Below are positions 26,215 through 51,633 of a stretch of DNA of 64,000 nucleotides, in pieces; the stretch's first letter is position 1; every line of letters begins with the position of its first letter. Position numbers and translations under genes: made by a program. The stretch is from NCBI GenBank assembly GCA_039714495.1, contig JBDLJD010000001.1:19318-83317 (forward strand), in the 5' to 3' direction. The notes under the pieces are model-generated. The model had not been told where the DNA came from. It made no database searches and saw nothing but the letters and a program-made list of their open reading frames with translations. The DNA comes from Thermodesulfobacteriota bacterium (GTDB lineage: Bacteria > Desulfobacterota > Desulfobacteria > Desulfobacterales > B30-G6).

Positions 26215-26240
26215 ATAACATCGCCGCGAGGCGATGTTAT
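26215..26240. terminator. 11-bp stem / GCGA-loop hairpin between convergent usp and pspC
   Basis: ataacatcgcc-gcga-ggcgatgttat. Overlaps the pspC stop codon (26237-26239). Confidence 0.5.
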
Positions 26241-26620
26241 GTGTGGAACTTCCGCTCCCAGTCGAATTCCCTGGCCGTGACCGTGTCCTCCATACGGCGA
26301 ATACGCCGCTCGAGATTCTGAAACCGCCGTTTCAGGCGCCCCACGGCCCTGGCCCGCGAATAGGTATAGCTGTCGTAAAACTCTCTTTCATCTTCGGTTT
26401 CAAGGGGCCGTATGGGTTCCGGCTTCATCAGCAGAGAGGCCACGAGGTAGATAAAAACCATGGGCCAGATGCCGCTGACCAGGAACAGGGCAAGCATTAT
26501 GACGCGCACCCAGAACACCTTGAGGTTGAAGTAGTCTGCCACCCCCCGGCACACGCCGAGGATAACGCCGTCCCTTGAGCGGTACAGCGGTCCCTGATAT
26601 CTATGTCTCCATCTTCTCAT
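26237..26620 (-). CDS. pspC: envelope stress response membrane protein PspC
   Basis: PspC domain LYRSRDGVILGVCRGVADYF followed by a TM helix. Overlaps pspB by 4 nt. Confidence 0.85.
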   Translation of the reverse strand: MRRWRHRYQGPLYRSRDGVILGVCRGVADYFNLKVFWVRVIMLALFLVSGIWPMVFIYLVASLLMKPEPIRPLETEDEREFYDSYTYSRARAVGRLKRRFQNLERRIRRMEDTVTAREFDWERKFHT

Positions 26621-26865
26621 GACGGTCGATCCTTTCTATGGTAGTCCATCAAAATGGTTTCAAGGCTCTCCACCCGCTTTTCCATTTCCTGAAACCCCTG
26701 GTACAGTTCCTGGATCAGACGGGCCTCTTCGGCCTGATCTTTTCGACTTTTGGCCGACAGGCCGCCCTGCCGCATGCGCATTCCCATGAGAATTGTCCCG
26801 GCAATGATGGCAATACACATGACGAATCCGCCGAAAACAATGGCAACAATGAGCACTGGGGTCAT
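26617..26865 (-). CDS. pspB: phage shock protein B
   Basis: 82 aa with a single N-terminal TM helix, then EEARLIQELYQGFQEMEKRVESLETIL, colinear with E. coli PspB. Sits between pspA and pspC. Confidence 0.75.
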   Translation of the reverse strand: MTPVLIVAIVFGGFVMCIAIIAGTILMGMRMRQGGLSAKSRKDQAEEARLIQELYQGFQEMEKRVESLETILMDYHRKDRPS

Positions 26866-26965
26866 ACTCTCTCCTAGCTGGGCTTTTCAATGATACTTAA
26901 TAAAAACCGTATCACATTTCATAGAAAATTCAGGTGAAGGGGTTTTAGCGGCTTATGAATTATTC

Positions 26966-27637
26966 CTAAACGGATTCCTTTTCCTTGCGGGAAGACTTCA
27001 GGGCCGCCAGCTCTGATTCAATATCATTATCCACATATAGATTGTCAAATGCTTCCTCGAGGGTCGGTTTCCGGCCGAAATTAACCAGGTCGGCCTCGGC
27101 CTCCATGCGTTCGATCCGGTTTTCAAGGTTGTCAAAGCGATTCATGGTTTCAAAATTGTCCATACGGCGGATTTCTTCCTGGGCCCTTCTTTTCCTGCGC
27201 GCCCGAATATGCCGCTGGATGAGCATACGCTGTTTTTCCCTGGCATTGTGAAGTTTGTCCTCGAGTTGGCGGATGTCATTTTGGTACTGCTCCACCATGT
27301 CATCGTGCTCTTCCAGTTCCCGTTTGATCGCTTCCGTCATCTCGGCAAAACGCCGCTTTTCAGCCAGGGCCTCCCTGGCCAGGTCATCCCTGCCTTTATC
27401 AACCGCCAGGCTGGCCATCTCCTGCCAGTAGGCCCTACGGTTTTCCACATCGCTCAACCGGCGGTTTAGCTTTTTACGGCCGGCAAGTACCCCCGCACAG
27501 GCGGCCTTTATTTCCACCAGGGTGTCTTCCATTTCTCGAATCATCATCTTGATCAGTTTTTCCGGATCTTCCGCCCTGTCCAGCATGGTGTTGATGTTCG
27601 AACTTATGATATCCCTGAAACGTGTAAAAATACCCAT
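26966..27637 (-). CDS. pspA: phage shock protein A (PspA/IM30 family)
   Basis: MGIFTRFRDIISSNINTMLDRAEDPEKLIKMMIREMEDTL. Coiled-coil, 223 aa. Confidence 0.9.
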   Translation of the reverse strand: MGIFTRFRDIISSNINTMLDRAEDPEKLIKMMIREMEDTLVEIKAACAGVLAGRKKLNRRLSDVENRRAYWQEMASLAVDKGRDDLAREALAEKRRFAEMTEAIKRELEEHDDMVEQYQNDIRQLEDKLHNAREKQRMLIQRHIRARRKRRAQEEIRRMDNFETMNRFDNLENRIERMEAEADLVNFGRKPTLEEAFDNLYVDNDIESELAALKSSRKEKESV

Positions 27638-27709
27638 TGTTTTTCTCCTGTCATTGCATTGGCTTGCTTCTCTTGTGGTCTGTAAGCGCTCGCTTTAGAT
27701 TTCACAATG

Positions 27710-27725
27710 AGCAGAAACTGTGCCA
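27710..27725 (-). promoter_or_regulatory. sigma54 (-24/-12) promoter of pspABC
   Basis: The minus strand reads TGGCACAGTTTCTGCT, with GG-N10-GC spacing correct, about 74 nt upstream of the pspA ATG. Divergent pspF encodes the cognate bEBP. An inverted repeat aacacaat (27737-27744) / attgtgtt (27775-27782) further upstream is a candidate UAS. Confidence 0.7.
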
Positions 27726-27859
27726 TCCTGGAGAAAAACACAATATCCCCTTGTTATTTCAGATAAAATTTTACATTGTGTTGGTTTACCCAATATGGTA
27801 TATTTTACCATGTTTTGGCAAATACAACCACTTAATGGTAATTATTAATAAATCAGACA

Positions 27860-28882
27860 ATGCCTTCGCCGTCCAAGACCATAGACATGGATGCCATCGG
27901 GCAGTCCGAAGCCTTTCTCGACTTCCAGGAAAAACTCTCCCGGGTGGCGCCGATCAATCGCCCCTTGCTTTTGATGGGAGAGCGCGGCACCGGAAAAGAA
28001 CTGGCAGCCTCGCGCCTGCATTACCTCTCTTTGCGCTGGCAGGAACCTTTTGTGGCCTTGAATTGTGCAGCGCTTTCACCCACGCTCATCGAGTCAGAGC
28101 TTTTCGGGCATGAAAAAGGCGCTTATACCGGTGCTACCGGCCTGCGCCAGGGACGGTTCGAAGCCGCGGACGGCGGCACTCTTTTTCTGGATGAAATCGG
28201 CATGATTCCTCTGGAAACCCAGGAAAAGATTTTGCGCGTCGTGGAATACGGCACCTTTGAAAGGGTGGGCGGCTCCACACCTGTAGATGTGGACGTGCGT
28301 ATTGTCGGTGCAACCAATGCAGACCTTCTGCGCCTCACCCGTGAGGGCACTTTTAAAAGGGACCTTCTGGATCGGTTATCTTTCGAGGTGCTTTTCCTGC
28401 CCCCCTTAAGGGCGCGCCAAGGGGATATCCCTTTGATGGCCGACTATTTTGCCCGCCGCATGGCCTATGAGTTGAATTGGGAAGAGATGCCCATCTTCAG
28501 TGAAGCGGTGCTTTCGCAAATGGAAAAACATCCCTGGAAGGGGAATGTGCGTGAACTAAAAAATGTTGTCGAGCGGGGTGTTTACCGGTCGGCCGGCCCC
28601 CGGATCACCCACGTGGATTTTGAGCCGTTTCAATCGCCTTATTTGCTGCCCGATGAACCGTCAGAACCGGTCTCATCGGAATTATCAGAACGCCTGGAAA
28701 ACAGGGGAAACATCACCCACACAAACCTGCCTCTCAAAGAGGCGGTCCATAACCTGGAGATATCCATGCTGAAACAAGCCCTTGTGGCAGCTCGGCACAA
28801 CCAGAAAAAGGCCGCAAAATTACTGGGGCTTACCTATGACCAAATCAGGGGGTTGATGCGGAAATATAAAAATGAAATTTGA
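27860..28882 (+). CDS. pspF: sigma54-dependent transcriptional activator PspF (AAA+ and HTH, no receiver domain)
   Basis: Walker [15 protein letters not shown]-like variant GAYTGA, C-terminal [21 protein letters not shown]. Divergent from pspA. Confidence 0.85.
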
Positions 28883-28916
28883 CGGTTATGCATGCGCCAA
28901 TGCATGCATAACCGTC
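28881..28916. terminator. bidirectional intrinsic terminator (15-bp perfect stem)
   Basis: gacggttatgcatgc-gccaat-gcatgcataaccgtc with T-rich tracts on both sides. Lies between convergent pspF and the lytic transglycosylase gene. Confidence 0.8.
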
Positions 28917-28921
28917 ACGTT

Positions 28922-29494
28922 TCATTTTTCTTGGAACACGTGGTAATAATTGATCACCTTTTTAACATAGTCCTCTGTCTCCCTGATGGGCGGAATGCCG
29001 CGATAACGGTCAACGGCGGTTGGTCCGGCGTTGTAGGCTGCCAGCGCCAGGGGGAGCTTGCCATTGTAGCGATCCATCATCATTTGAAAGTATTTTGACC
29101 CGCCTAAAATATTTTCCCGGGGGTCAAACGGGTCGTCGATATCAAGGGAGTCATAGTTTTTAGGCATGATCTGCATCAGGCCCTTGGCGCCTTTTTTTGA
29201 TACGGCTTTGGTATCGAAGTTTGACTCCACACGAATCATGGCCTTTATCAAAGCAAAAGAAATACCTGAAATATGCGAGGCCTCGCTGATCAGATGATCA
29301 TATTGATTCACAGGCTCTTCTGACGGCAATTTTTTCTGCTTTTCCTTGATGTATAATTTATAGTTCGATGATGTGGGGGTGTTGGTGAAATGAAGGATCC
29401 CATCACTGTCCAGATACATGTAAATGTCGGCAAAAACGGGAGCCGTTTTCAATAACAAGATCATGCACAGGGCGAGACAACCTAACTTATTCAT
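28922..29494 (-). CDS. lytic transglycosylase (SLT domain) with N-terminal DUF4124-like region
   Basis: Signal peptide, then YMYLDSDGILHFTN, and SLT catalytic region IRVESNFDTKAVSKKGAKGLMQIMP. ATGA overlap with the upstream helicase gene. Confidence 0.85.
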   Translation of the reverse strand: MNKLGCLALCMILLLKTAPVFADIYMYLDSDGILHFTNTPTSSNYKLYIKEKQKKLPSEEPVNQYDHLISEASHISGISFALIKAMIRVESNFDTKAVSKKGAKGLMQIMPKNYDSLDIDDPFDPRENILGGSKYFQMMMDRYNGKLPLALAAYNAGPTAVDRYRGIPPIRETEDYVKKVINYYHVFQEK

Positions 29495-32400
29495 ATGGAA
29501 AACAGTTCCAGCTGGGTGTGACCCTTTTTACGAGGGCGGCCCTCAGCCACGCGATGATAATTTTTAAGGTTCTGTTCGATGTCACGGATAAACCTGGATG
29601 GTTCCCTTGATTCATTTTTTCCAAAAACCGTGCGTTTTTTCACATAGCTTAAAAACAACGCCTGCTTGGCGCGTGTCATGGCCACATACAACAGTCGGCG
29701 CTCCTCCTCTATATTTTCGGCATCCCCATTCTGCGGTTTGAAAGGAATATAGCCCTCTTCACAACCACTCACAAAAACCACTGGAAATTCAAGTCCTTTG
29801 GATGCATGCATGGTCATCAGGGATACTTTCTCAGTGTTGGCATCAAACAGGTCTGTGTCTGTCTGCAGCGATGTTGTCTGACAAAGCACAGCCGTTGTGG
29901 GATATTGATTTGAATGCTCGACGAATTTTTCCAGTGCAGCCCTTGATTCCCTGTCGGGTGCCGCTTTTTCACGAATCTGGCTGTTGTCCAGTATAAACCT
30001 TATTTTCTGTTGCGGGGTTAATCCCTTCATTTGCAGGCGAAGAGTGTTTATTTTATCAATAAACTTAACGATTTTTAGCTGGCGCTCCTTCTTCATCCCA
30101 ATCACCGGAAAACGACGGGTGTTGTCCAGTGCTTCCAGAAGAGCGTAGTTGTTTTCAAATGCCCATTTTTTCCATTTCTGTACGGTATTGGGTCCCAGAC
30201 CGGACCCCGCATATTTAAAAATCCTTTCCATATCCATATATGATCCTGTTTTTTCAATTATTTTCAGAAAGGAAAGGGTAAAGTCTACACTTTTTTCAGA
30301 AAATGCTTCATCCTTGGAAGCAACCTGGAACGGTATGCCGGCCCGTTTGAGCACATCGGCAAACACCTCACACTGGCGCCCGGTCCGGAACAACACGGCA
30401 AAATCGCCAAAAGAACAATCCTCCATGGTTGTGTCGGTTTTCTCGAAATCAATGGAATAAAACCCCAACCCACCGACCATACGCTCAATTTCTTTTCCAA
30501 TGGCCACGGCTTCACCCTGCTCGTCAGCGCAGGGTAGAACATTGATGCTTTCCGGTCCATCGATCTTCGAAAAAATTTTTATAGCGTCCCGGCCCTCCTT
30601 GGTGGACCCTATCATCTGTTGCGAGGCTTCGAGCACCACCTGCACCGAACGGTAATTTCGGGACAGATTGATGGAAAGCGCCTGGGGATAGTCTTTGGTA
30701 TACCGGTTGAAGAAACGCGCATCAGATCCTCTGAACCCGTAGATAGACTGGTCAGGATCCCCAATGACACAGATGTTGGCATTCTGCGGGGCCAGGTGTT
30801 TTATAATGCGATATTGTGCAAAATTAACGTCTTGATATTCATCTACAAAAATATATTTAAACTGTTTTTGAAATCGATTTACCCGCTCCGGGGAATCATC
30901 AAATATCTTGACCACATTATAAATCAAATCCTCGAAGTCCCACAGATGGTCCCTTGATAGCTGGTTTTGATAATTTATATAAACCTGTTGAAATAGCCTC
31001 TGGGAAACGTCTTTGATGGTGCCGGGCCGTTTATGAGGTCCGCGGATCTGCTGCTTTTCTCCAGCCACCCAGTTGGCCAGGTCACCTAATTTTATGCCGA
31101 TATCGACACGTGCCTTTTTTAGACTATTGGCTGCCTGTTCGAAAAAATACCTTCTTTCGTTTTCATCTACTATCCTGAAAGAATTCATTTTTTCCATATC
31201 CTGGAGCACTTGGACACAAAAAGCATGAAATGTCGTCGCCAGCGGGGCTTTTGTTTTATCCCCTAATATCTGTTTAAGCCGATGGTGCATCTCTTCGGCA
31301 GCTTTGTTGGTAAAGGTAAGCGCCAGAATATTATCGGGTTTTGCCTGATGGCTGTCGATCAGATGCGCTATTCTATGGGTTATGGTCAGGGTTTTGCCCG
31401 TTCCAGGACCGGCAACGATGATCAGGGGGCCTTTTCCATGAAGAACGGCCTGTTGCTGTTGTTTATTGAGAATAGATTTTTGGTTAGCTGTCGTCTTTTT
31501 TTTTTTACCGGTTTTCTTCTTGATAAAAAGACGGCCTTTGGGGGAGTTTTTTTTTTTAGATTCTTGCTTGGGAATATTGAAAAGCTTTTTCTGCCCGGAC
31601 AGGGTCTCTTTTTCTTTGGCGTCAAAAAGGGAAATTCTACCGAATTCACCATCATATCCTGGATGGACTTTCACCTCGTTTCGGCGGGCGCGCAGGATGG
31701 CTTCACTAAAATACGGCAAATCAACGGTTTCTATCTGATCAACATCAAGGAAATTGATAATATCCAACTCCGGCCCGAGTTGGCCTAACAGACGGTCATA
31801 ATGATAGGACACTTTCTTGGTATTGGGGCCCACACTCAATATTTCCGAAAGTATTTCTCTCAACGGTATTATACTCTGAAAGGCATGTCTTTTTTCGGGC
31901 TGGATGCCTTCTTCACGGTCCGCCAACTCTTCGACCCGGTACAGCACTCCCAGGGTCATGGGTTTATGGCAGACCGGGCAGATACCTTCATGGATTATGG
32001 TATCCCGCGGCCAGGAGCGCACATTGCACTTCCGGTGTCCGTCCAGATGATATTTGCCCTCTTCAGGATAAAACTCCAGCGTTCCCAGAAAGGTTGAAGG
32101 GTCCCCTTCTTCCATGGCCTGGCGGATATGTTTAAAGGATAGTTCTGTATTAAACATATTCGCCTCTCTACCCAGTTTACTGGGCGAATGGGCATCGGAA
32201 TTGGATATCAATGTCATATCATCGAGGAATTTTATCCGCCAGTTCATGGGGGGATCAGAGGAAAGACCCGTTTCAACGGCAAAAATATAAGGCGTCAGAT
32301 CTTCAAAACATTCTTCTATGGTGTCAAATCCTGATTTAGATCCCAAAATAGAAAACCAGGGTGTCCATATATGCGCGGGAACTAAAAAGTTTTTTTCAGA

Positions 32401-32862
32401 TTTTTTCAGAACAATTTCAAGAAGATGTTTGGCATCGAGGCCCAGGATAGGCCTTCCGTCGGAGTGGATATTGCCTATTTTTTCCAATTCTTTATTAAAG
32501 GACGCAGCAATGGTAAGATCGGGGATAAAGACCAGGTTGTGGTTTTTCCTGGTTTTCCCGTCTTTTTTATAAATATTACTTATTTCCGTTGTCAGAACAA
32601 ATCGCACATCACCCCTACAGGCAGCTGGAACATGTTCGTCTAAGGATGTAGCTATATCCTCCCTCAGTTTAAAAAGGCCTTCCTCCGCCGGTATTAACTT
32701 TGTTTCAATTTCGTCAAACCATCCGGGATGGGTAAAATCACCTGTCCCGATGACATGTATACCTTTTAGCTGAGCTGATATATAAAGATTTTCAAGATCT
32801 AAATTTTTAGCGGTTGCGCGAGAGTATTTTGAATGGATGTGAAAGTCGGCAATAAATTTCAT
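29491..32862 (-). CDS. fusion protein: N-terminal EndoQ-like PHP nuclease with Zn finger, then a Lys-rich linker and a UvrD/PcrA/Rep SF1 helicase
   Basis: 1123 aa. Residues 1-~425 carry FIADFHIHSKYSRAT, GTGDFTHPGW, PAHIWTPW, SNSDAHSPSKLGREAN, GKYH and CPVCHKPMTLGVLYRVEELAD, colinear with archaeal endonuclease Q. Residues ~475-1123 carry Walker A AGPGTGKT, DEYQDVN, and YRSV and TMHASKGLEF helicase motifs. Confidence 0.8.
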   Translation of the reverse strand: MKFIADFHIHSKYSRATAKNLDLENLYISAQLKGIHVIGTGDFTHPGWFDEIETKLIPAEEGLFKLREDIATSLDEHVPAACRGDVRFVLTTEISNIYKKDGKTRKNHNLVFIPDLTIAASFNKELEKIGNIHSDGRPILGLDAKHLLEIVLKKSEKNFLVPAHIWTPWFSILGSKSGFDTIEECFEDLTPYIFAVETGLSSDPPMNWRIKFLDDMTLISNSDAHSPSKLGREANMFNTELSFKHIRQAMEEGDPSTFLGTLEFYPEEGKYHLDGHRKCNVRSWPRDTIIHEGICPVCHKPMTLGVLYRVEELADREEGIQPEKRHAFQSIIPLREILSEILSVGPNTKKVSYHYDRLLGQLGPELDIINFLDVDQIETVDLPYFSEAILRARRNEVKVHPGYDGEFGRISLFDAKEKETLSGQKKLFNIPKQESKKKNSPKGRLFIKKKTGKKKKTTANQKSILNKQQQQAVLHGKGPLIIVAGPGTGKTLTITHRIAHLIDSHQAKPDNILALTFTNKAAEEMHHRLKQILGDKTKAPLATTFHAFCVQVLQDMEKMNSFRIVDENERRYFFEQAANSLKKARVDIGIKLGDLANWVAGEKQQIRGPHKRPGTIKDVSQRLFQQVYINYQNQLSRDHLWDFEDLIYNVVKIFDDSPERVNRFQKQFKYIFVDEYQDVNFAQYRIIKHLAPQNANICVIGDPDQSIYGFRGSDARFFNRYTKDYPQALSINLSRNYRSVQVVLEASQQMIGSTKEGRDAIKIFSKIDGPESINVLPCADEQGEAVAIGKEIERMVGGLGFYSIDFEKTDTTMEDCSFGDFAVLFRTGRQCEVFADVLKRAGIPFQVASKDEAFSEKSVDFTLSFLKIIEKTGSYMDMERIFKYAGSGLGPNTVQKWKKWAFENNYALLEALDNTRRFPVIGMKKERQLKIVKFIDKINTLRLQMKGLTPQQKIRFILDNSQIREKAAPDRESRAALEKFVEHSNQYPTTAVLCQTTSLQTDTDLFDANTEKVSLMTMHASKGLEFPVVFVSGCEEGYIPFKPQNGDAENIEEERRLLYVAMTRAKQALFLSYVKKRTVFGKNESREPSRFIRDIEQNLKNYHRVAEGRPRKKGHTQLELFSI

Positions 32863-33198
32863 GGAAGGTTTATTTAACTGCCCGTTTTAGGTTAAAATTT
32901 TCTTGTATATTTTTGAGTAGCAGGCTATATATCTTCATTTAATATATTACTTAATACAATATATAGTATATTTCGCGTTTTTTTAGAATACAATGTTTTC
33001 ATTCATTGTTAATAAATATCCACTTATGAACATCGCCTTGAAAAATGTACACAACCGGGCTGTTCTTTATACGTATTCAACACATTTATTGAAAACCTTT
33101 TATCAAATTAAATTAAATATAGTCAATTTATTATAGACTTATTAGTTTTATTGACACTCTATACTTATACTTATTTTAAATTTAAATAAGGAATAGAT

Positions 33199-36758
<3,560 letters not shown>

Positions 36759-36792
36759 ATAATATTTATAAAATTGAGTTGTAGTATTTATA

Positions 36793-36824
36793 AAAGGGCA
36801 ATCTAATTATATAGGTTGCCCTTT
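36793..36824. terminator. bidirectional terminator hairpin between gyrB and the FabH-like gene
   Basis: aaagggcaa-N14-ttgcccttt, followed by tgaatttt. Confidence 0.7.
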
Positions 36825-36846
36825 TGAATTTTGGTATAAATTTTTA

Positions 36847-38367
36847 TTATAGGCGCTGCAGAAAAGAGCTGCGCGTCATACCTGCACCCACGGAATCGTT
36901 GAGGATGATCTTCGCCGATCTGAGCGCTTCCAGGTTGCGATTGATGGGCAAGCCGTTGATGGTGTCCGGTTTGAGCGCGCTTTTGGCCAGGTCATAGGGC
37001 AATCGCTGCATACAGACCACCGAGCAGTTGCCCCTTTCATGGATATTGGTGATCATTTTGTTGGCCAGGTAATCCACGATATCCTGCTTAAGGTCGGGTT
37101 GGCCGTCGTCCAATACTTTTTCCAGGGTCAAGGGGAGCATGGCAAAGTTGGCCTGGTGTTCGACCAGAAGGTCAAGCTTTTGCATAGTAAGATTATTGTC
37201 ACCAAGCAGGGCGTCCATATGGCTGCGGGCACCTCGTGTGGCATAGAGAAAAACACCCTTGCCGTTCATTTCGCCGAACAGTTCACCGTCCCGTTCAACT
37301 GCTTGAATATACGGGGCAAAGCAGCCATGGGTTCTGGTGCGGGCATCAACGATGCCATTTTCCGGCTGTGTAAATTCATACGATTCGCTCTTGTGGACAG
37401 TCACCTCCACGGAATAATCCTGTTGGAGATAAATAGAGATGATATTCTTTTGTTTTCCCGACAGGATGTATGTTTTGGCAAAGGTTTTGACGAGCTCGGG
37501 ATCATCGTTGAGGGTGTTGATGTCAAAAGCAAAGGAATCTACATGGTTTTCATACAGGCCCATGAGGCTTTTGAAACTGGTTGCCTGGTCAGCCTGTTCC
37601 GGGTGCATGTGTTGGACCAGGCAATGCTGCACCCGGGCTGATATGGCCGGAACCCGCATGGGAAGAATGCCCAGTTTGTTGTCGATGATGATGCCGTCAA
37701 TTTTGTCGTTTCCGTTCAGATTATAGATGATATTTGCCAGTTGGTCGGTGAAATCCTTTTTCAGGGCCCCTTTAAATGTCTTGGTTTCAATGTTGTTTTG
37801 AGGCATTTCCTGGCTGCAGGTTGTTTCCAGGGCTGTGGCCACGGAATCGTCCCCAAAGATGATGTTGGATGTGTTCTTGGGTTTGAAGGCTTTGCAGCGG
37901 TGGATGTTTTCCGCTCCCACAACAATGGAGATATCCCCCTCCTTAAGGTAGCCGGTGAGGGAAAGCATCAGTAACAGTTCAACGGAGACATTGTAGCCCG
38001 GGCATCCGGCATACAGGTCAAGGGCAGTGGCATTCGGGCACTTGTCCTTGATGATGTCGAACGGGTAACGGATAAGCGGTCCCGGGTCGAATTTGTCATC
38101 CCCCACATTGGTGGCCCCGATTATGAGCTTTACCCGGGCGGGATCGAACGCATTGGTTTCCATGAGGTCATCAACGGAAATGGTACCAATTCTGACATCA
38201 TCGGGCGCCACCACACGGGTGCGGATACCGATGCGTTCTTCGATGGTTTTATGGGTTACCGGTATATTCCCCTTGAAGAACATACCTTTGTTTTCATACA
38301 TGGCGTTGTCGGTGAGGGTACCGCCGTTCCATGCACCATAACCCAGGATCTGCAGTGCTGAATTCAT
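36847..38367 (-). CDS. FabH/KAS III-like thiolase-fold condensing enzyme with ~150-aa internal insertion
   Basis: 506 aa. Putative Cys-His-Asn triad contexts LYAGCPGYN, VEHQANFAML and RGNCSVVCM. FabH-like MNGKGVFLYATRG and a C-terminal DSVGAGMT. The region between the halves has no FabH counterpart. Confidence 0.65.
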   Translation of the reverse strand: MNSALQILGYGAWNGGTLTDNAMYENKGMFFKGNIPVTHKTIEERIGIRTRVVAPDDVRIGTISVDDLMETNAFDPARVKLIIGATNVGDDKFDPGPLIRYPFDIIKDKCPNATALDLYAGCPGYNVSVELLLMLSLTGYLKEGDISIVVGAENIHRCKAFKPKNTSNIIFGDDSVATALETTCSQEMPQNNIETKTFKGALKKDFTDQLANIIYNLNGNDKIDGIIIDNKLGILPMRVPAISARVQHCLVQHMHPEQADQATSFKSLMGLYENHVDSFAFDINTLNDDPELVKTFAKTYILSGKQKNIISIYLQQDYSVEVTVHKSESYEFTQPENGIVDARTRTHGCFAPYIQAVERDGELFGEMNGKGVFLYATRGARSHMDALLGDNNLTMQKLDLLVEHQANFAMLPLTLEKVLDDGQPDLKQDIVDYLANKMITNIHERGNCSVVCMQRLPYDLAKSALKPDTINGLPINRNLEALRSAKIILNDSVGAGMTRSSFLQRL

Positions 38368-38629
38368 CGGGGGGTAAATCTCCTTGGTGAATAATTGTAT
38401 TGATTATGAATAATACTATATGGGAAGAAGAAGAAAAGGTCTTTAAGTAGAAATTACCACTGATTTTGTAAAAGAAATGTAAAAATAAATTTTCATGCAT
38501 CTTATTTACATGAGCAGATGAAAACATCGGTAATATAATTGGCTTTCATGCTTTGTTAAGCGTATCTGAGCATGAAAATTTATGGAATGCGGCTTCGCCG
38601 CTCAATTATCAATGATGGGAGCCAAATCA

Positions 38630-39421
38630 ATGAACATACATAATATACAAGCGAGGGACCTGCCGGATCTGTGGTTCCAGGCCGTGCATGACATTCTGGA
38701 CAACGGCCGCCGGTTTACAATCGACAGAGGGTCATATGCCGGGCAAACCCGGTTGGAATACGACTATTTCTGCGGGCATGTGATCCACCCGTACACCGAA
38801 CCCCTTATTCCCGACATACCGCCGGCTTGCGGCATTCCCAACCCTGTGGAAGAGGCCTATATCTACGGTGGTGACGGTTACGAGCGGTCCTATATCGAAT
38901 ATCTGATGACCGGCCATAAGGAACCGGGCGAGTCCTATACGTACGGTGAGCGACTGACCCGCGCACCGATCTCCGGAAACAAAAAGATCTGGTGGGATGA
39001 AGAAAACCAGGAGATCATCGACCGGCGGGAAGTGGACGGGAAAATTGTTTTCAAAGAGGATGAGGAACTTTTTCTCAACCAGATCGAATGGATCATCGAT
39101 ACGTATAAGAATTTCGGTTACCGCAACAACCAGATGGTTTTGCAGGTGGCGCATCCATCGGATATGACCCTCCTGGATCCACCCTGTCTGCGTTCCATTG
39201 ACACGCGCATCCAGGACGGCAAGCTCAATTTTTTCGTTTATTTCAGGTCGTGGGATCTATGGGGGGGGCTGCCGGCCAACCTGGCCGGGGTCCAGAACCT
39301 GAAGAGCTATATGGCGGCGGAGATCGGTGTGGATGACGGCGAAATGGTTGTGGAGAGCAAGGGACTGCACCTTTATGGCTACGCCGAGGACCTGGCCAAG
39401 CTGCGCTGCCTCCGCGACTAA
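38630..39421 (+). CDS. thymidylate synthase-like protein, archaeal (MJ0757-like) type
   Basis: YTYGERLTR, LDPPCLRSID (catalytic Cys context), YFRSWDLWGGLPANLAG. Start 38630 (MNIHNIQ) follows a gatGGGAG SD. Confidence 0.65.
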   Translation: MNIHNIQARDLPDLWFQAVHDILDNGRRFTIDRGSYAGQTRLEYDYFCGHVIHPYTEPLIPDIPPACGIPNPVEEAYIYGGDGYERSYIEYLMTGHKEPGESYTYGERLTRAPISGNKKIWWDEENQEIIDRREVDGKIVFKEDEELFLNQIEWIIDTYKNFGYRNNQMVLQVAHPSDMTLLDPPCLRSIDTRIQDGKLNFFVYFRSWDLWGGLPANLAGVQNLKSYMAAEIGVDDGEMVVESKGLHLYGYAEDLAKLRCLRD

Positions 39422-47672: not shown

Positions 47673-49340
47673 ATGGAACAAGGCCGAGTATTGATCGCCA
47701 TCGCTCTTTCGTTCGCTGTTTTTTTGGTATGGAATTTTTTCTTTGTTGAAAAACCAGAAGTTGGGCAACAGCCAGCTGGAATGACAGAGCCTGCCGCGGA
47801 AAATCAGCCCGCATCCACCACTGCATCATCCAACGAGGCGCCGGAAAAGGCGTCTGATACCTTTGTTGCCGAGGAAAAGGCCAGTTCTAAGGAGGCTGCT
47901 GAGGCCAGGATCATTACTGTAAAAACACCTCTTTATACGGTTCACATCTCAGAGGATGGCGCGGTTTTTAAGGGTTTCGAACTTGAGAACTACAGGGAAA
48001 GTGCGGATAAGAACGCGGCCAGGAAAAGCCTGCTCGACCCGGAGATCAACAGCCAGAACATGAAGGTGTCTTTGGCCGGCAACGGTCTGCCCGGGCTTGA
48101 GACGGCGGTTTTTGAGGCAGACGATCCCGGCGACATGATCGCTGTGACCGACATGGAGCGTACGCTGACCTTTACCTGGCAGTCCGAAAGCGGTGTGGTC
48201 GTTGAAAAGCGGTTTACTTTTTCACCGGACACCTATCTGATCGACCTGGGGCTTGTTTTTAGAAACGGGTCAGGCAACGGCTTTACAGATCGTGCCATGG
48301 TTGAAATTCAGCATGCACTGCCGCAAAAGAAGGGCGGGTATGCCTTTGAGGGCCCCAGTGTCTTGCTTAACGGCAAGCTCGAGCAAATAAAAGTAAAGAA
48401 AATTGAGGACAACAACCGGCTCACTGGATCCTTAAGCTGGTTGGCCATCGAGGACCGTTATTTCATGCGCAGCCTCATTCCCGCCGAACCCGTGGACGGA
48501 ACCGTGAGGCTGGCCGTCAAGGACGAAGGTCTCGTTGTCGGTCAACTTCAACGTCCTGAACGTACGTTCCTGCCCGGGGAATCCGTGAGCTATGGCTACA
48601 AAGTGTATTTCGGCCCCAAAAGCATGCAGTTGTTGAACACCCTGGGCTACGACCTGGGCAAGGCTGTCCAGTTCGGTATGTTCAGTATTATTGCCAAACC
48701 GCTGCTGTGGTTTATGAACTTCATCTACAGTGTCATTCCAAACTACGGCATCGCCATCATCCTCCTGACCATTGTCACCAAAATTGTTTTGTGGCCGCTG
48801 GGAAATAAAAGCTACAAATCCATGAGTGAAATGAAAAAAATTCAGCCGCTCATGGGTGAAGTGAGGGAAAAGTACAAAAACGACAAGAAGCAGATGAACC
48901 AGGAATTGATGGCCCTTTACAAGACCTATAAGATCAACCCCATGGGTGGCTGTCTCCCCATGGTGTTGCAAATACCTGTTTTTTTTGCATTATATAGAAT
49001 GTTGTACTCCGCGATTGAATTACGGCATACACCATTCGTTCTGTGGATCAATGATTTGTCGGCTCCGGACCGGTTGTTCGAATTTGGTTTTTCCATTCCG
49101 TTTATGCAGCCGCCTTATGGAATACCGGTGTTGACCCTTGTTATGGGGGCTACCATGTTTCTGCAGCAAAAGATGTCACCAGCTCCGGGGGATCCAGCCC
49201 AGGCCAAAATGATGATGCTCATGCCCGTTGTATTCACGTTTATTTTCATCAACTTTTCGTCTGGTCTGGTTCTTTACTGGCTTGTCAATAATGTCCTGTC
49301 CATAGCTCAACAGTATTACATTCAGAAAAAATATGCCTAG
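47673..49340 (+). CDS. yidC: membrane protein insertase YidC
   Basis: 555 aa with a large periplasmic P1 domain, then GIAIILLTIVTKIVLWPL...KINPMGGCLPMVLQIPVFFALY. Confidence 0.95.
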   Translation: MEQGRVLIAIALSFAVFLVWNFFFVEKPEVGQQPAGMTEPAAENQPASTTASSNEAPEKASDTFVAEEKASSKEAAEARIITVKTPLYTVHISEDGAVFKGFELENYRESADKNAARKSLLDPEINSQNMKVSLAGNGLPGLETAVFEADDPGDMIAVTDMERTLTFTWQSESGVVVEKRFTFSPDTYLIDLGLVFRNGSGNGFTDRAMVEIQHALPQKKGGYAFEGPSVLLNGKLEQIKVKKIEDNNRLTGSLSWLAIEDRYFMRSLIPAEPVDGTVRLAVKDEGLVVGQLQRPERTFLPGESVSYGYKVYFGPKSMQLLNTLGYDLGKAVQFGMFSIIAKPLLWFMNFIYSVIPNYGIAIILLTIVTKIVLWPLGNKSYKSMSEMKKIQPLMGEVREKYKNDKKQMNQELMALYKTYKINPMGGCLPMVLQIPVFFALYRMLYSAIELRHTPFVLWINDLSAPDRLFEFGFSIPFMQPPYGIPVLTLVMGATMFLQQKMSPAPGDPAQAKMMMLMPVVFTFIFINFSSGLVLYWLVNNVLSIAQQYYIQKKYA

Positions 49341-49354
49341 TCAGGGAGGGATAG

Positions 49355-50134
49355 ATGGCGCCCATAGTCGAATTTGAAGGCAAAACCGTAGAAGGGGCGG
49401 TCAAAGAAGCGAGTGAAAAACTGAACATTCCAGTGCGAAAGCTAAAGCACGATGTCATTTCGCATGGTTCCACCGGGATTTTCGGGCTGGTAGGCGCAAA
49501 AAGGGCCAAAATTCGTGTCTCGGTCCCTGAAACCGACTTGCCGCAAGTGCCTGAAGTGTCACCGCCCCCCCCGCCAACGGAAGAAAATGAAGCCGTGTCC
49601 TTGGTGGAGGAAGCCTTTGAGACCCAGGAGGTCGAAGAAGATTGGGATGCGGTGGAAAAGATCGGCCTGGAGGCCCTGCAAAAACTGGTGGACTATATAA
49701 CCGCGGATGCCGCCATTGAATTCGACCGGAAAGAGGAAAAACTATTTTACAACATTGCCGGCGGCAATACAGCCGTTTTGATCGGCAAGCGGGGGCAGAC
49801 TCTGGAAGCCATGCAGTACCTGGTGGAAAAGATCGTAAACAAACGGAGTGAAAAACGGGTCCGGGTCGAAATCGATGTTGAGGGGTATCTCGAAAAGAAA
49901 AGAGAAAAGCTGAGAAGCCTGGCAATCAAGCTGGGCGAAAAGGTAAAGCAGACCAAGAAACCGGCCACGGTCGGCCAACTGAATGCCTATGACCGCAGAA
50001 TTGTTCACCTTGCCTTGAAAGCGGACGGTGAACTGCGAACCCACAGCATCGGTGAAGGATATTACCGCAAGTTGAAAATATTTCCCAAACAGCGCAGACG
50101 CAGAGGAAAAGGCGGCAAAACAGACACCAAATAG
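49355..50134 (+). CDS. jag: RNA-binding protein Jag/KhpB (Jag_N, KH and R3H)
   Basis: N-terminal VEFEGKTVEGAVKEASEKLN, KH-like VLIGKRGQTLEAMQYL, R3H LNAYDRRIVHLAL. Confidence 0.85.
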   Translation: MAPIVEFEGKTVEGAVKEASEKLNIPVRKLKHDVISHGSTGIFGLVGAKRAKIRVSVPETDLPQVPEVSPPPPPTEENEAVSLVEEAFETQEVEEDWDAVEKIGLEALQKLVDYITADAAIEFDRKEEKLFYNIAGGNTAVLIGKRGQTLEAMQYLVEKIVNKRSEKRVRVEIDVEGYLEKKREKLRSLAIKLGEKVKQTKKPATVGQLNAYDRRIVHLALKADGELRTHSIGEGYYRKLKIFPKQRRRRGKGGKTDTK

Positions 50135-50244
50135 GGGGACTGTCGGCCAGATAGTGTCCTTCATCACACCCAGCTATAAACGCCAGCGCGACGCATACAA
50201 AGAAGTCCAATCAGGCGAAGCGAATGTCCCCCACGGATTGAACA

Positions 50245-51633
50245 ATGGAACCAGCCACCATAGCCGCCATAGCAACGCCGCCGGGCAGCGGCGGTATTGG
50301 CATCATTAGAATATCGGGTACGGCGTGCCAGACCATTCTGACCGATATATTTCGCCCTTCAGGGAACCGGTCTGCGCAAGGGCCCATCTCTTCAACCCGG
50401 ATGCATTCACATCGCTTGTACATGGGGCATATTGTCGATTCCGGCAGCAACACCCGGGTGGACGAAGTGCTGGTGGTTGTCATGCGGTCCCCCAAATCAT
50501 ATACAACGGAAGATGTTGTCGAGATCCAATCCCACTCCGGATACATTGTTTTAAACAAGATTCTGAAGCTGGTGCTTGAGAAAGGGGCCCGCCTTGCTGA
50601 ACCGGGTGAGTTCACACGCCGGGCGTATATGAATGGCAGAATTGACCTGACCCAGGCCGAAGCCGTTATCGACATTATCAACGCCCGAACCGGTCGATCC
50701 CTGGATTTGGCTGCCGAACAACTCCAAGGCGAAATCGGTCGGCGGATTAACGCGATTCGGGACTCTATTCTGTCTGTGCTGGCCGAAATAGACGCGAACA
50801 TTGATTTTGCCGACGATATGGACGGGGCCGACATCGATTGGCAATGGGAGGAATCCATAAAAAATGATGTTGTGGACCCCCTTGACCGGTTGATCGCAGC
50901 CTATGAACAGAACCACTACTTTCGGGACGGGATCAGAATGGCCATCGTCGGAAGGCCCAATGTCGGTAAGTCGAGCCTCTTGAACCGGTTGACCCGCAAG
51001 GAAAGGGCGATTGTCACTGAGATTCCCGGCACCACCCGGGACACCATCGAAGAGATGATTAACATAAAAGGACTTCCGGTCATTCTCATCGACACCGCCG
51101 GTCTGCATGACACCACACAACAAATAGAAATGATAGGCATTGAACGCACGCATGCGACCATTAAGTCCGCAGATATCGTTCTTTTTGTGGTGGATTCCAG
51201 CCAGGGGGTCAAGCCGGACGATCACGCTATTTTTACACAACTCGGCGGGGTTAAGCACATTATCGTCATGAACAAGGTCGATTTGAACAGCAACATGGCG
51301 TTACCACCCGAGTGGGCGGAAAGCGCGATTGTCAGGGTTTCCGCCCTGGAGGGCACCCACATCCAAACGCTAAAAGAGACTATTTTTGACATGGGGGTTG
51401 GGCGGCAGCCGAATTCCAGCACATCCTCCATTGTGCCAAACCTGCGGCAGGCAGAAGGCCTGAAAAATGCCCGGCATCTAGCCTCCAATGCTATGGCCGT
51501 TATCCACCGCGAGCCTGAACTGGCAGCCGTGGATCTCAAGGAGGCAATGGGAGCGCTGGATCGTATCTTAGGGTTAAGCTCCAGCGAAGATGTGCTTGAC
51601 CGGATTTTCAGCCAATTTTGTATCGGCAAATAA
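50245..51633 (+). CDS. mnmE: tRNA uridine-5-carboxymethylaminomethyl modification GTPase MnmE
   Basis: TIAAIATPPGSGGIGIIRISG, G-domain GRPNVGKSSLLN / DTAG / NKVD, C-terminal FCIGK. Confidence 0.95.
   Translation: MEPATIAAIATPPGSGGIGIIRISGTACQTILTDIFRPSGNRSAQGPISSTRMHSHRLYMGHIVDSGSNTRVDEVLVVVMRSPKSYTTEDVVEIQSHSGYIVLNKILKLVLEKGARLAEPGEFTRRAYMNGRIDLTQAEAVIDIINARTGRSLDLAAEQLQGEIGRRINAIRDSILSVLAEIDANIDFADDMDGADIDWQWEESIKNDVVDPLDRLIAAYEQNHYFRDGIRMAIVGRPNVGKSSLLNRLTRKERAIVTEIPGTTRDTIEEMINIKGLPVILIDTAGLHDTTQQIEMIGIERTHATIKSADIVLFVVDSSQGVKPDDHAIFTQLGGVKHIIVMNKVDLNSNMALPPEWAESAIVRVSALEGTHIQTLKETIFDMGVGRQPNSSTSSIVPNLRQAEGLKNARHLASNAMAVIHREPELAAVDLKEAMGALDRILGLSSSEDVLDRIFSQFCIGK

Follow-up and report, generated by a model that had tools for sequence, protein, structure and literature searches.

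An EndoQ-type nuclease module fused to a UvrD/PcrA-type helicase in Desulfobacterales and other mostly anaerobic bacteria: a predicted clamp-tethered enzyme for deaminated or abasic DNA

A 64,000-nt stretch of the genome of a Thermodesulfobacteriota bacterium (GTDB lineage Desulfobacterales, B30-G6; GenBank assembly GCA_039714495.1, contig JBDLJD010000001.1, positions 19,318 to 83,317 of the forward strand; this whole stretch is hereafter called the window) carries on its minus strand a single uninterrupted open reading frame (ORF) of 1123 aa, in which an endonuclease Q (EndoQ)-type nuclease module is joined through a disordered linker to a helicase of the UvrD/PcrA type. The gene belongs to a catalogued, biochemically uncharacterised long type of EndoQ, and we think it fairly probable, by analogy with better known enzymes, that its product would act as a repair enzyme which is tethered to the clamp, incises deaminated or abasic DNA and unwinds it. 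The fusion had been proposed in an earlier note made from the DNA sequence alone, and is here compared with profile, structure and genome databases and with the literature on EndoQ.

One polypeptide with a nuclease half and a motor half

The ORF (29491..32862, minus strand) was read from the window sequence and begins with ATG. All the motifs quoted in the earlier note were found in it, on the PHP side DFHIHSKYS (residues 6-14), GTGDFTHPGW (39-48), PAHIWTPW (162-169) and SNSDAHSPSKLGRE (220-233), in the zinc-finger region CPVCHKPMTLGVLYRVEELAD (295-315), and in the helicase AGPGTGKT (484-491), DEYQD (674-678) and TMHASKGLEF (1017-1026). The parts of the gene, all on the minus strand, are as follows, with the basis of each assignment in brackets.

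29491..32862, minus: whole ORF, EndoQ module, disordered linker, UvrD/PcrA-type helicase and clamp-motif tail (profile and PDB matches, full-length homologs)
32068..32862, minus: PHP catalytic domain of the EndoQ module, ~residues 1-265 (PfuEndoQ alignment)
31867..32067, minus: Zn-binding domain, ~residues 266-332 (alignment of 80 fusion proteins; ligand codons 31969-32037)
31618..31866, minus: C-terminal helical domain of the EndoQ module, ~residues 333-415, including K349, the equivalent of Pfu K320 (alignment)
31471..31617, minus: linker, Lys-rich, poorly conserved and predicted disordered, residues 416-464 (low model confidence, family-wide variability)
31579..31593, minus: internal QxxLF, Q424-K-K-L427-F428, putative beta-clamp-binding motif (motif conservation)
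29593..31470, minus: SF1A UvrD/PcrA-type helicase core, ~residues 465-1090 (Pfam, PcrA profile, PDB PcrA/UvrD, motif invariance)
31390..31413, minus: Walker A, residues 484-491 (helicase motif)
30829..30843, minus: helicase motif II DEYQD, residues 674-678 (helicase motif)
29500..29514, minus: C-terminal QLELF, residues 1117-1121, putative beta-clamp-binding motif after a variable Lys-rich tail (motif conservation)

An AlphaFold model of the fusion protein, built from 39 homologs, had a mean predicted local distance difference test score (pLDDT) of 71 and a predicted template modelling score (pTM) of 0.44, with low-confidence stretches within the helicase, and is therefore unusable for inter-domain geometry. 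Within the EndoQ module the C-terminal helical domain was modelled with a pLDDT of 80-92.

Active site and lesion pocket of the EndoQ module

Residues 5-413 of the window protein align with residues 5-383 of PfuEndoQ (5zb8/7k30; E 1e-47, ~33% identity), and the N-terminal region spans the complete NCBIfam model TIGR00375 (2-374/374, E 2e-44, 152.6 bits). The N-terminal part of the model superposes on 5zb8 and 7k30 with a target-normalised template modelling (TM) score of 0.80 and a root mean square deviation of 3.8-4.2 Å (Foldseek), and in a fold search with the whole model every non-helicase match among the 50 PDB matches displayed was an EndoQ. The EndoQ identity that the earlier note had given to the N-terminus is borne out by these matches, and a non-EndoQ PHP family was rejected, the alignment running through the EndoQ-specific Zn-binding and helical domains. 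The succession of PHP, Zn-binding and C-terminal helical domains is that of PfuEndoQ and Thermococcus kodakarensis EndoQ (5ZB8, 7K30-33). By its profile match the N-terminal module is best classed as a distinct subfamily of the EndoQ superfamily, not as an equivalog of the archaeal enzyme. The local copy of Pfam gave no match for the N-terminus. A precomputed Pfam accession, PF27218.1, which is absent from that copy, stood on every homolog in the database search table; it probably models the EndoQ-type module.

Residue roles for PfuEndoQ were taken from the literature (PMC5961232, PMC8307549) and 80 fusion proteins were aligned to it. The catalytic metal ligands His8, His10, Glu76, His84, His139 and Asp193 (and His195) of PfuEndoQ (PMC5961232) correspond to H8, H10, E93, H108, H164, D223 and H225 of the window protein, which are invariant in 80/80. 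The ligand motifs listed in the earlier note are thus present, but one of them, GTGD..HP.W, is not among the published EndoQ metal-ligand motifs, though it is conserved in the fusion family, and E93 and H108 had been missed. The deaminated-base pocket of PfuEndoQ is formed by Thr142, Glu167, Leu168, Gly169, Leu170, Ser171 and Asn191 (PMC5961232), and the equivalents T167, E197, G199, L200 and S201 were found in 80/80 fusion proteins and N221 in 79/80. Leu168, which touches the base via its main chain (PMC5961232), is replaced by an invariant Thr (Thr198) across the fusion family; the metal ligands are shared with archaeal EndoQ. The Pfu residues keeping normal T and A out of the pocket (H139, G169 and S171; PMC5961232, PMC8307549) are present in 80/80, and equivalents of Pfu S14, R114 and W144 (W169 in the window protein) are also conserved.

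The zinc finger noticed earlier is present with four ligands, H276-x2-C279 ... C295-x2-C298. PfuEndoQ has a C4-type finger (Cys249, Cys252, Cys268 and Cys271; PMC5961232), and the first of these cysteines is His in 80/80 fusion proteins whilst the remaining three (C279, C295, C298) are invariant. Since His can bind zinc, an HCCC zinc site is likely in the fusion family. Relative to archaeal EndoQ the window protein thus differs by the changes of Cys249 to His and Leu168 to Thr, by two insertions in the PHP domain (~residues 67-83 and 97-106 as aligned with PfuEndoQ) and by an additional 660-aa helicase. The short bacterial EndoQs (Bacillus pumilus/B. subtilis type; Brevibacillus laterosporus WP_031414379, 393 aa, labelled 'endonuclease Q family protein') belong to the same family and share the catalytic residues, but they are only 28-29% identical to the fusion-type module, have a C4 finger and a His at the Pfu W144 position, and are without a helicase; the Brevibacillus sequence also lacks a terminal QxxLF. 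To judge from the conserved residues, an EndoQ-type active site and lesion pocket are intact in the window protein.

The UvrD/PcrA-type motor

The C-terminal half matches the Pfam families UvrD-helicase (residues 465-726, E 9e-77, 258.8 bits, gathering cutoff 23) and UvrD_C (residues 731-1075, E 1e-46, 160 bits, gathering cutoff 25.6), in line with the complete UvrD-type helicase described previously. PDB PcrA (1pjr) matches the region with an E of 2e-100, and this part of the model superposes on DNA-bound PcrA and UvrD with a TM of ~0.62. Motifs Q, I, Ia, II, III, IV, V and VI are all present, and Walker A, the D-E-x-Q-D of motif II and the key residues of motifs III, IV, V and VI were 100% conserved among 74 fusion proteins. 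The four-subdomain layout (1A/1B/2A/2B), including the variable 2B region, is complete, and it is shared, together with all the helicase motifs, with PcrA, UvrD and Rep (3PJR, 2IS4 and 1UAA). From these features the SF1A motor appears intact in the fusion protein.

The best NCBIfam model for the region was PcrA (TIGR01073; 477.7 bits, profile 4-645/725), for which the equivalog cutoff is 911.2, and the UvrD equivalog model (TIGR01075) gave 360.4 bits against a cutoff of 1144, so that on profile scores the fused helicase is classed as neither a PcrA nor a UvrD ortholog. The match to the PcrA profile ends at 645/725, whereas that of the PcrA of Sporomusa aerivorans reaches 724/725. The last ~80 residues of PcrA/UvrD, that is, the C-terminal RNA-polymerase-interacting domain, are lacking in the window helicase, which has the clamp-motif tail instead.

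A UvrD-like SF1 motor is likewise covalently joined to a nuclease in AddA, RecB and AdnB. The nuclease of those proteins is a C-terminal PD-(D/E)xK domain acting on DNA ends, however, whilst that of the fusion is N-terminal and predicted to be a lesion-specific PHP endonuclease. The similarity of AddA and RecB to the fusion is confined to the motor, with partial matches far below cutoffs; a profile search found no PD-(D/E)xK nuclease domain after residue 1090 of the window protein, and no AddB or RecC neighbour is present at the window locus.

Two clamp-type motifs

The window protein terminates in ...TQLELFSI. A motif of the form Q-[LIVMF]-x-[LIVMF]-[FLWY] lies within the last 25 residues of 53/74 complete family members, and most of the others have close variants such as QSTLF, QRSLF or QQELF. 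In Desulfobacterales the QxxLF-type motif usually forms the last five residues; the Lys-rich stretch preceding it is unconserved across the family. Archaeal EndoQ likewise has a C-terminal clamp-docking motif after a disordered tail, but its motif is a PIP box whilst that of the window protein resembles the bacterial beta-clamp type. The archaeal enzyme binds PCNA through the PIP box, an interaction that stimulates cleavage, and the C-termini of the bacterial homologs bear motifs of the beta-clamp type (Shiraishi et al., 2016, Sci Rep 6:25532, PMC4858679).

A second QxxLF lies inside the protein (residues 424-428). It is invariant in 39 Desulfobacterales proteins and is largely retained across phyla (Q in 62/74, L in 69/74 and F in 69/74), whilst the ~50 residues around it are hypervariable in length and sequence and, over residues 423-477, were modelled with a pLDDT of only 31-46. 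Short bacterial EndoQs have a clamp motif of their own near the end, at residues 401-464 (PMC4858679, Suppl. Fig. S1), and the internal QxxLF of the fusion sits where these stand-alone proteins stop. We infer from this placement that the helicase may have been appended behind an ancestral clamp-binding tail and that the second motif now marks the new C-terminus. The predicted binding partner of both motifs is the product of dnaN, the divergent neighbour of the fusion gene.

Further variation was seen in this part of the family. The linker holds another conserved element, R-x-[LM]-I-N-F-D-L-x-E-[YF]-x-x-L, ~25 residues past the internal QxxLF in fusions from outside Desulfobacterales (L034-L079), being common to Cloacimonadota, Spirochaetota, Aminicenantes, Bacteroidales and others, and missing from the window protein and other Desulfobacterales. 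The Sporomusa fusion protein ends in ...QACLFD and its internal motif is degenerate (QMCFL).

A widespread and co-inherited architecture

A database search returned more than 120 full-length clusters of 1120-1160 aa with 49-93% identity to the window protein, under the source names 'UvrD-helicase domain-containing protein', 'DNA 3'-5' helicase', 'TIGR00375 family' and 'PcrA'. A scan of one genome per species placed relatives in at least 320 species genomes from ~10 phyla, mostly anaerobic, and 80 related loci were retrieved for comparison, most of which match essentially the entire query length. Fusions were found in Desulfobacterales, Cloacimonadota, Moduliflexus/UASB14, Calditrichaceae, Spirochaetota and Elusimicrobia, and further in Aminicenantes, Armatimonadota, Omnitrophota, Bacteroidales and Sporomusa aerivorans DSM 13326.

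The nuclease module was also searched for alone. An exhaustive search gave 1035 clusters (50% identity) at E <= 1e-30, and among the best 150 of these 128 were >= 900 aa and 22 were shorter. Inspection of four of the 22, the two shortest among them, showed only contig-end fragments or ORFs with frameshifts: P0166 is a fragment extending into the helicase, P0207 and P0262 are frameshifted or aberrant ORFs, and P0229 (423 aa), which stops just beyond the EndoQ module without a terminal clamp motif, was rejected as a stand-alone close relative since it has the look of a fragment at the end of a contig.

When proteins are compared in pairs, the identities of the nuclease and helicase halves are strongly correlated (Pearson 0.92, Spearman 0.87; n=74 proteins), which argues that the halves were inherited together; as between single and multiple fusion events, this correlation of distances favours co-inheritance, but helicase halves from different clades resemble one another no more than they do a canonical PcrA. 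The same comparison bears on whether adjacent endoQ and uvrD/pcrA genes were merely joined by a frameshift or in a chimeric contig, a condition that the earlier note had itself named as fatal to its reading. The unbroken architecture of 1030-1240 aa recurs in more than 120 protein clusters and 80 independently assembled genomes, complete chromosomes among them (Desulfonema magnum, 8.0 Mb; Desulfobacterales CP070768; Sporomusa aerivorans DSM 13326), and with at least 320 species genomes and co-evolving halves (r = 0.92) an assembly chimera was rejected; we regard an artefact of assembly or annotation as having a negligible chance of being the explanation.

Relation to the published long EndoQ homologs

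Supplementary Fig. S1 of Shiraishi et al. (2016; PMC4858679) shows bacterial EndoQ homologs of two length classes, 10 of 405-464 aa and 34 of 945-1244 aa. Those of the long class have a C-terminal clamp motif, and amongst them are proteins of Desulfobacter curvatus (WP_020586011, 1088 aa, ...QLELF), Desulfobacterium autotrophicum (WP_015906045, 1156 aa) and Cloacimonetes (WP_029157127, 1073 aa); Geobacter metallireducens, Desulfovibrio vulgaris, Zymomonas mobilis and Myxococcales also appear there as carriers of the long form. The Cloacimonadota loci in our comparison encode proteins of 1072-1073 aa with QQELF or QQQLF at the end, which agree in length and terminal motif with the 1073-aa protein published. 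Going by taxa, length class and terminal QLxLF, it is very probable that the window protein is orthologous to this long set, which probably corresponds to 'EndoQ family 3' of Shiraishi et al. 2017. The word 'helicase' does not occur in the main text of PMC4858679, the supplement not having been searched for it, and Miyazono et al. (2018; PMC5961232) mention three EndoQ families differing in domain organization, citing Shiraishi 2017.

The statement in the earlier note that EndoQ is described as a stand-alone enzyme was hence incomplete in view of the 34 long bacterial homologs, and the novelty is lower than that note implied, because these homologs had already been listed and three families mentioned. 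Its supposition that the fusion might exist unannotated in databases proved right, the type also being among the published long homologs, and its remark that the architecture lacks experimental work agrees with our literature searches on EndoQ/PHP plus UvrD helicase fusions and on TIGR00375, which found nothing relevant. What is new here is the residue-level membership test, the H-C-C-C finger, the internal clamp motif and the loss of the PcrA C-terminal domain, together with the co-evolution and unequal rates of the two halves, the origin-proximal synteny with dnaN and the demonstration that the overlap with the downstream gene, described below, is incidental.

The locus

The features flanking the fusion gene are listed below.

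28880..28917, no strand: hairpin with a 17-bp stem, bidirectional terminator of the fusion-SLT unit and of the convergent pspF (sequence)
28922..29494, minus: SLT-domain lytic transglycosylase, 190 aa, with signal peptide (PF01464, E 3e-27)
32863..33198, no strand: divergent intergenic spacer shared with dnaN, 336 bp, AT-rich (GC ~0.36) (fusion promoter region)
33199..34317, plus: dnaN (beta sliding clamp), divergent neighbour (Pfam DNA_pol3_beta N, central and C domains)

The TGA stop of the fusion gene overlaps the ATG of the SLT gene by 4 nt (ATGA, 29491-29494, read base by base), and the two genes form one transcription unit in the window. This overlap, on which the earlier note had remarked, is real, but the arrangement is local. 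An SLT gene follows the fusion in only 10-13/80 related loci, all Desulfobacterales and mostly with a gap of 70-500 bp, and for this reason the SLT protein is not taken to be part of the system; a functional link, which had been considered, was rejected as lineage-specific.

Upstream, gyrB (34317-36758) directly follows dnaN with neither dnaA nor recF present, and dnaN-gyrB is the divergent neighbour of the fusion in 27-30/80 related loci, all Desulfobacterales; among the 80 loci no neighbouring gene is conserved outside this order. The cumulative GC-skew minimum falls at ~30-33 kb of the window and yidC-jag-mnmE lie at 47673-51633, ~14 kb from the spacer region. The region 30000-34000 is probably the chromosomal replication-origin region, and the spacer 32863-33198 is a candidate origin spacer. 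No DnaA-box cluster was found in the 336-bp spacer, which has three degenerate sites only (33007, 33024 and 33148), and DnaA-box-like sites were not enriched above chance across the window. The G+C content is 0.39-0.45 over window positions 30000-38000 and ~0.50 elsewhere, and because the dip spans the fusion gene, dnaN and gyrB alike it is read as a regional, origin-proximal feature and not as a mark of recent acquisition of the fusion.

In Sporomusa aerivorans DSM 13326 (L073 8001-15781) a canonical pcrA (752 aa) comes 108 bp after the fusion gene, and ligA (676 aa) a further 25 bp on, all three on one strand. The PcrA scores 997.5 bits (profile 2-724/725) and the LigA 883 bits. The three genes may form a repair operon, and the fusion here coexists with a housekeeping helicase and adjoins a ligase. 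The EndoQ module had no match in 50,697 phage records and one in 72,556 plasmids. In PADLOC the helicase half matches GajB models (306 bits) below its PcrA match (478 bits), and among the window neighbours no GajA or other defence partner was found, only pspF-type regulators being matched; in Gabija itself GajB sits beside the OLD-family ATPase-nuclease GajA, which the fusion locus lacks. Over the 80 related loci no neighbour of a defence type was conserved either. The context of the gene is a housekeeping one, of replication and repair.

Other genes of the region were noted in passing. A complete phage-shock module occupies 26237-28882 of the window, with a pspF-like sigma-54 activator gene (27860-28882, plus strand) and, divergent from it, pspA (26966-27637), pspB (26617-26865) and pspC (26237-26620), all on the minus strand. 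A methanogen-type thymidylate-synthase-like gene (38582-39421, plus strand) matches TIGR03283 with 96 bits against a cutoff of 174, and homologs lie immediately 3' of gyrB in 13 related Desulfobacterales loci; a gene for an archaeal-type enzyme of deoxythymidine monophosphate synthesis is thus kept a few genes from one for an archaeal-type uracil endonuclease. A 506-aa ORF (36847-38367, minus strand) has no Pfam match and weak, split NCBIfam matches of FabH type (beta-ketoacyl-ACP synthase III), and is conserved with 62-82% identity in the two closest loci (L055, L056). In Desulfosarcinaceae/Desulfatitalea-type genomes (L014, L016-L020, L022, L053, L058, L076, L080) dnaN and the fusion are separated by an insertion of two small genes, encoding a 204-aa weakly RdgC-like protein and a 175-aa protein of no assigned family.

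A proposed function and its alternatives

UvrD unwinds from nicks in mismatch and excision repair. For the fusion, the range of substrates, the direction in which it would unwind, its binding to the clamp and the later steps are proposed from the established biochemistry of EndoQ and UvrD. The EndoQ module would flip a deaminated base (uracil, hypoxanthine or xanthine) or an abasic site into its pocket and break the phosphodiester bond directly on the 5' side of the lesion; the nick would have a 3'-OH, and the damaged nucleotide would carry a 5'-phosphate. The fused 3'-5' helicase would load at the nick, translocate on the undamaged strand and peel off the lesion-bearing 5' end, which is the geometry of UvrD when it starts at a 5' nick during mismatch repair. 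Probably the helicase would free the tightly bound nuclease from its product as well. The two QxxLF motifs would dock the enzyme on the beta clamp, like the PIP box of archaeal EndoQ on PCNA, and the clamp would recruit or stimulate it; the repair could then be completed by a polymerase and LigA together with an exonuclease or flap nuclease acting on the 5' end. The related B. pumilus EndoQ cuts at deoxyuridine, deoxyinosine and abasic sites (cited in PMC5961232 and PMC6202378). A more specific version, in which both QxxLF motifs would occupy the two clefts of one beta2 ring on newly replicated DNA so that nicking and then unwinding would provide a glycosylase-independent, replication-coupled alternative to base excision repair, we put forward only tentatively.

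Several observations weigh against the proposal of a clamp-tethered incise-and-unwind enzyme. The TIGR00375 score of 152.6 bits is below the curated cutoff of 326.6, and as the finger is H-C-C-C and a Leu of the pocket wall has become Thr, the specificity of the fusion could differ from that of archaeal EndoQ. The model shows no confident packing between the domains (pTM 0.44). Across phyla the helicase half is 29-38% identical and the EndoQ half 50-58%, and fused helicases from different clades are no closer to one another than to canonical PcrA (~31%); such faster evolution of the helicase half would be unexpected if the halves worked tightly together. Clamp binding is predicted solely from the conservation of short motifs, and no biochemical or genetic study of a long-form EndoQ was found in the searchable literature.

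UvrD-family motors displace proteins. PfuEndoQ, for its part, stays bound to its nicked product (PMC5961232), and the helicase of the fusion might hence serve mainly for turnover or hand-off, ATP being spent on stripping the EndoQ module off the product or on passing the nick to a clamp-bound polymerase, with the lesion removed by ordinary strand-displacement synthesis and flap cleavage. The long disordered linker would suit such a role, as would a helicase half that diverges fast and keeps only its ATPase and translocation motifs, but the full four-subdomain UvrD/PcrA architecture, including 2B, has been kept with a TM of ~0.62 to the DNA-bound forms, and we consider a turnover motor of this kind unlikely, although it looks the same in sequence as true unwinding and the two are mutually compatible. 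Less probable again is an anti-phage or foreign-DNA nuclease-helicase that nicks and unwinds invading DNA with uracil or other non-canonical bases, a role that the earlier note had already ranked lower. A review credits Shiraishi 2017 with the suggestion that Bacillus EndoQ may have an antiviral part, and the phage protein Ugi does not inhibit BsuEndoQ (PMC8307549), but the GajB matches that might speak for such a role reflect generic UvrD homology, being weaker than that to PcrA, and no defence partner is nearby; the gene is stably syntenic with dnaN-gyrB at the probable origin, the phage records lack the module altogether and the plasmids almost so, and two motifs of clamp-binding type point to the host replisome.

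The PHP fold is common to 3'-5' exonucleases and phosphoesterases, and the N-terminal half could in principle be a non-specific enzyme of this kind, comparable with the PHP domain of PolX or of Pol III alpha, that trims ends made by the helicase in an AddAB-like manner. The want of a local Pfam match and a score below the TIGR00375 equivalog cutoff would fit this, but the match continues past the barrel into the Zn-binding and C-terminal helical domains that are particular to EndoQ, the residues of the lesion pocket G199, L200, S201, T167 and N221 are conserved, the displayed non-helicase fold matches are all EndoQ and there is no PD-(D/E)xK domain, so that we hold it to be very improbable, somewhat more so than a role in defence. 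A clamp-tethered repair enzyme that incises at deaminated or abasic sites and unwinds from the nick agrees with all that was computed here and stays the reading that we favour.

Significance

The present result is a sharper description of a known type and not a new kind of system, and is unlikely to surprise EndoQ specialists. To our knowledge, EndoQ has been studied almost only in hyperthermophilic archaea, with the addition of one Bacillus enzyme. To judge from the 1035 clusters with E <= 1e-30, in which the closest relatives are almost all fused, the dominant bacterial form of EndoQ is the helicase fusion, which databases usually label only as 'UvrD-helicase domain-containing protein' and for which better annotation is now possible. 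The fusion enzyme makes a good target for biochemistry and is also a candidate reagent, PfuEndoQ already being used in deaminase assays. If the proposed function is correct, a single protein docked on the sliding clamp would provide a route from lesion recognition to strand removal, which would answer, at least in bacteria, what acts downstream of the EndoQ nick; and if the more tentative reading of a bivalent clamp-riding machine should prove true, many anaerobic bacteria would gain a single-polypeptide alternative to base excision repair.

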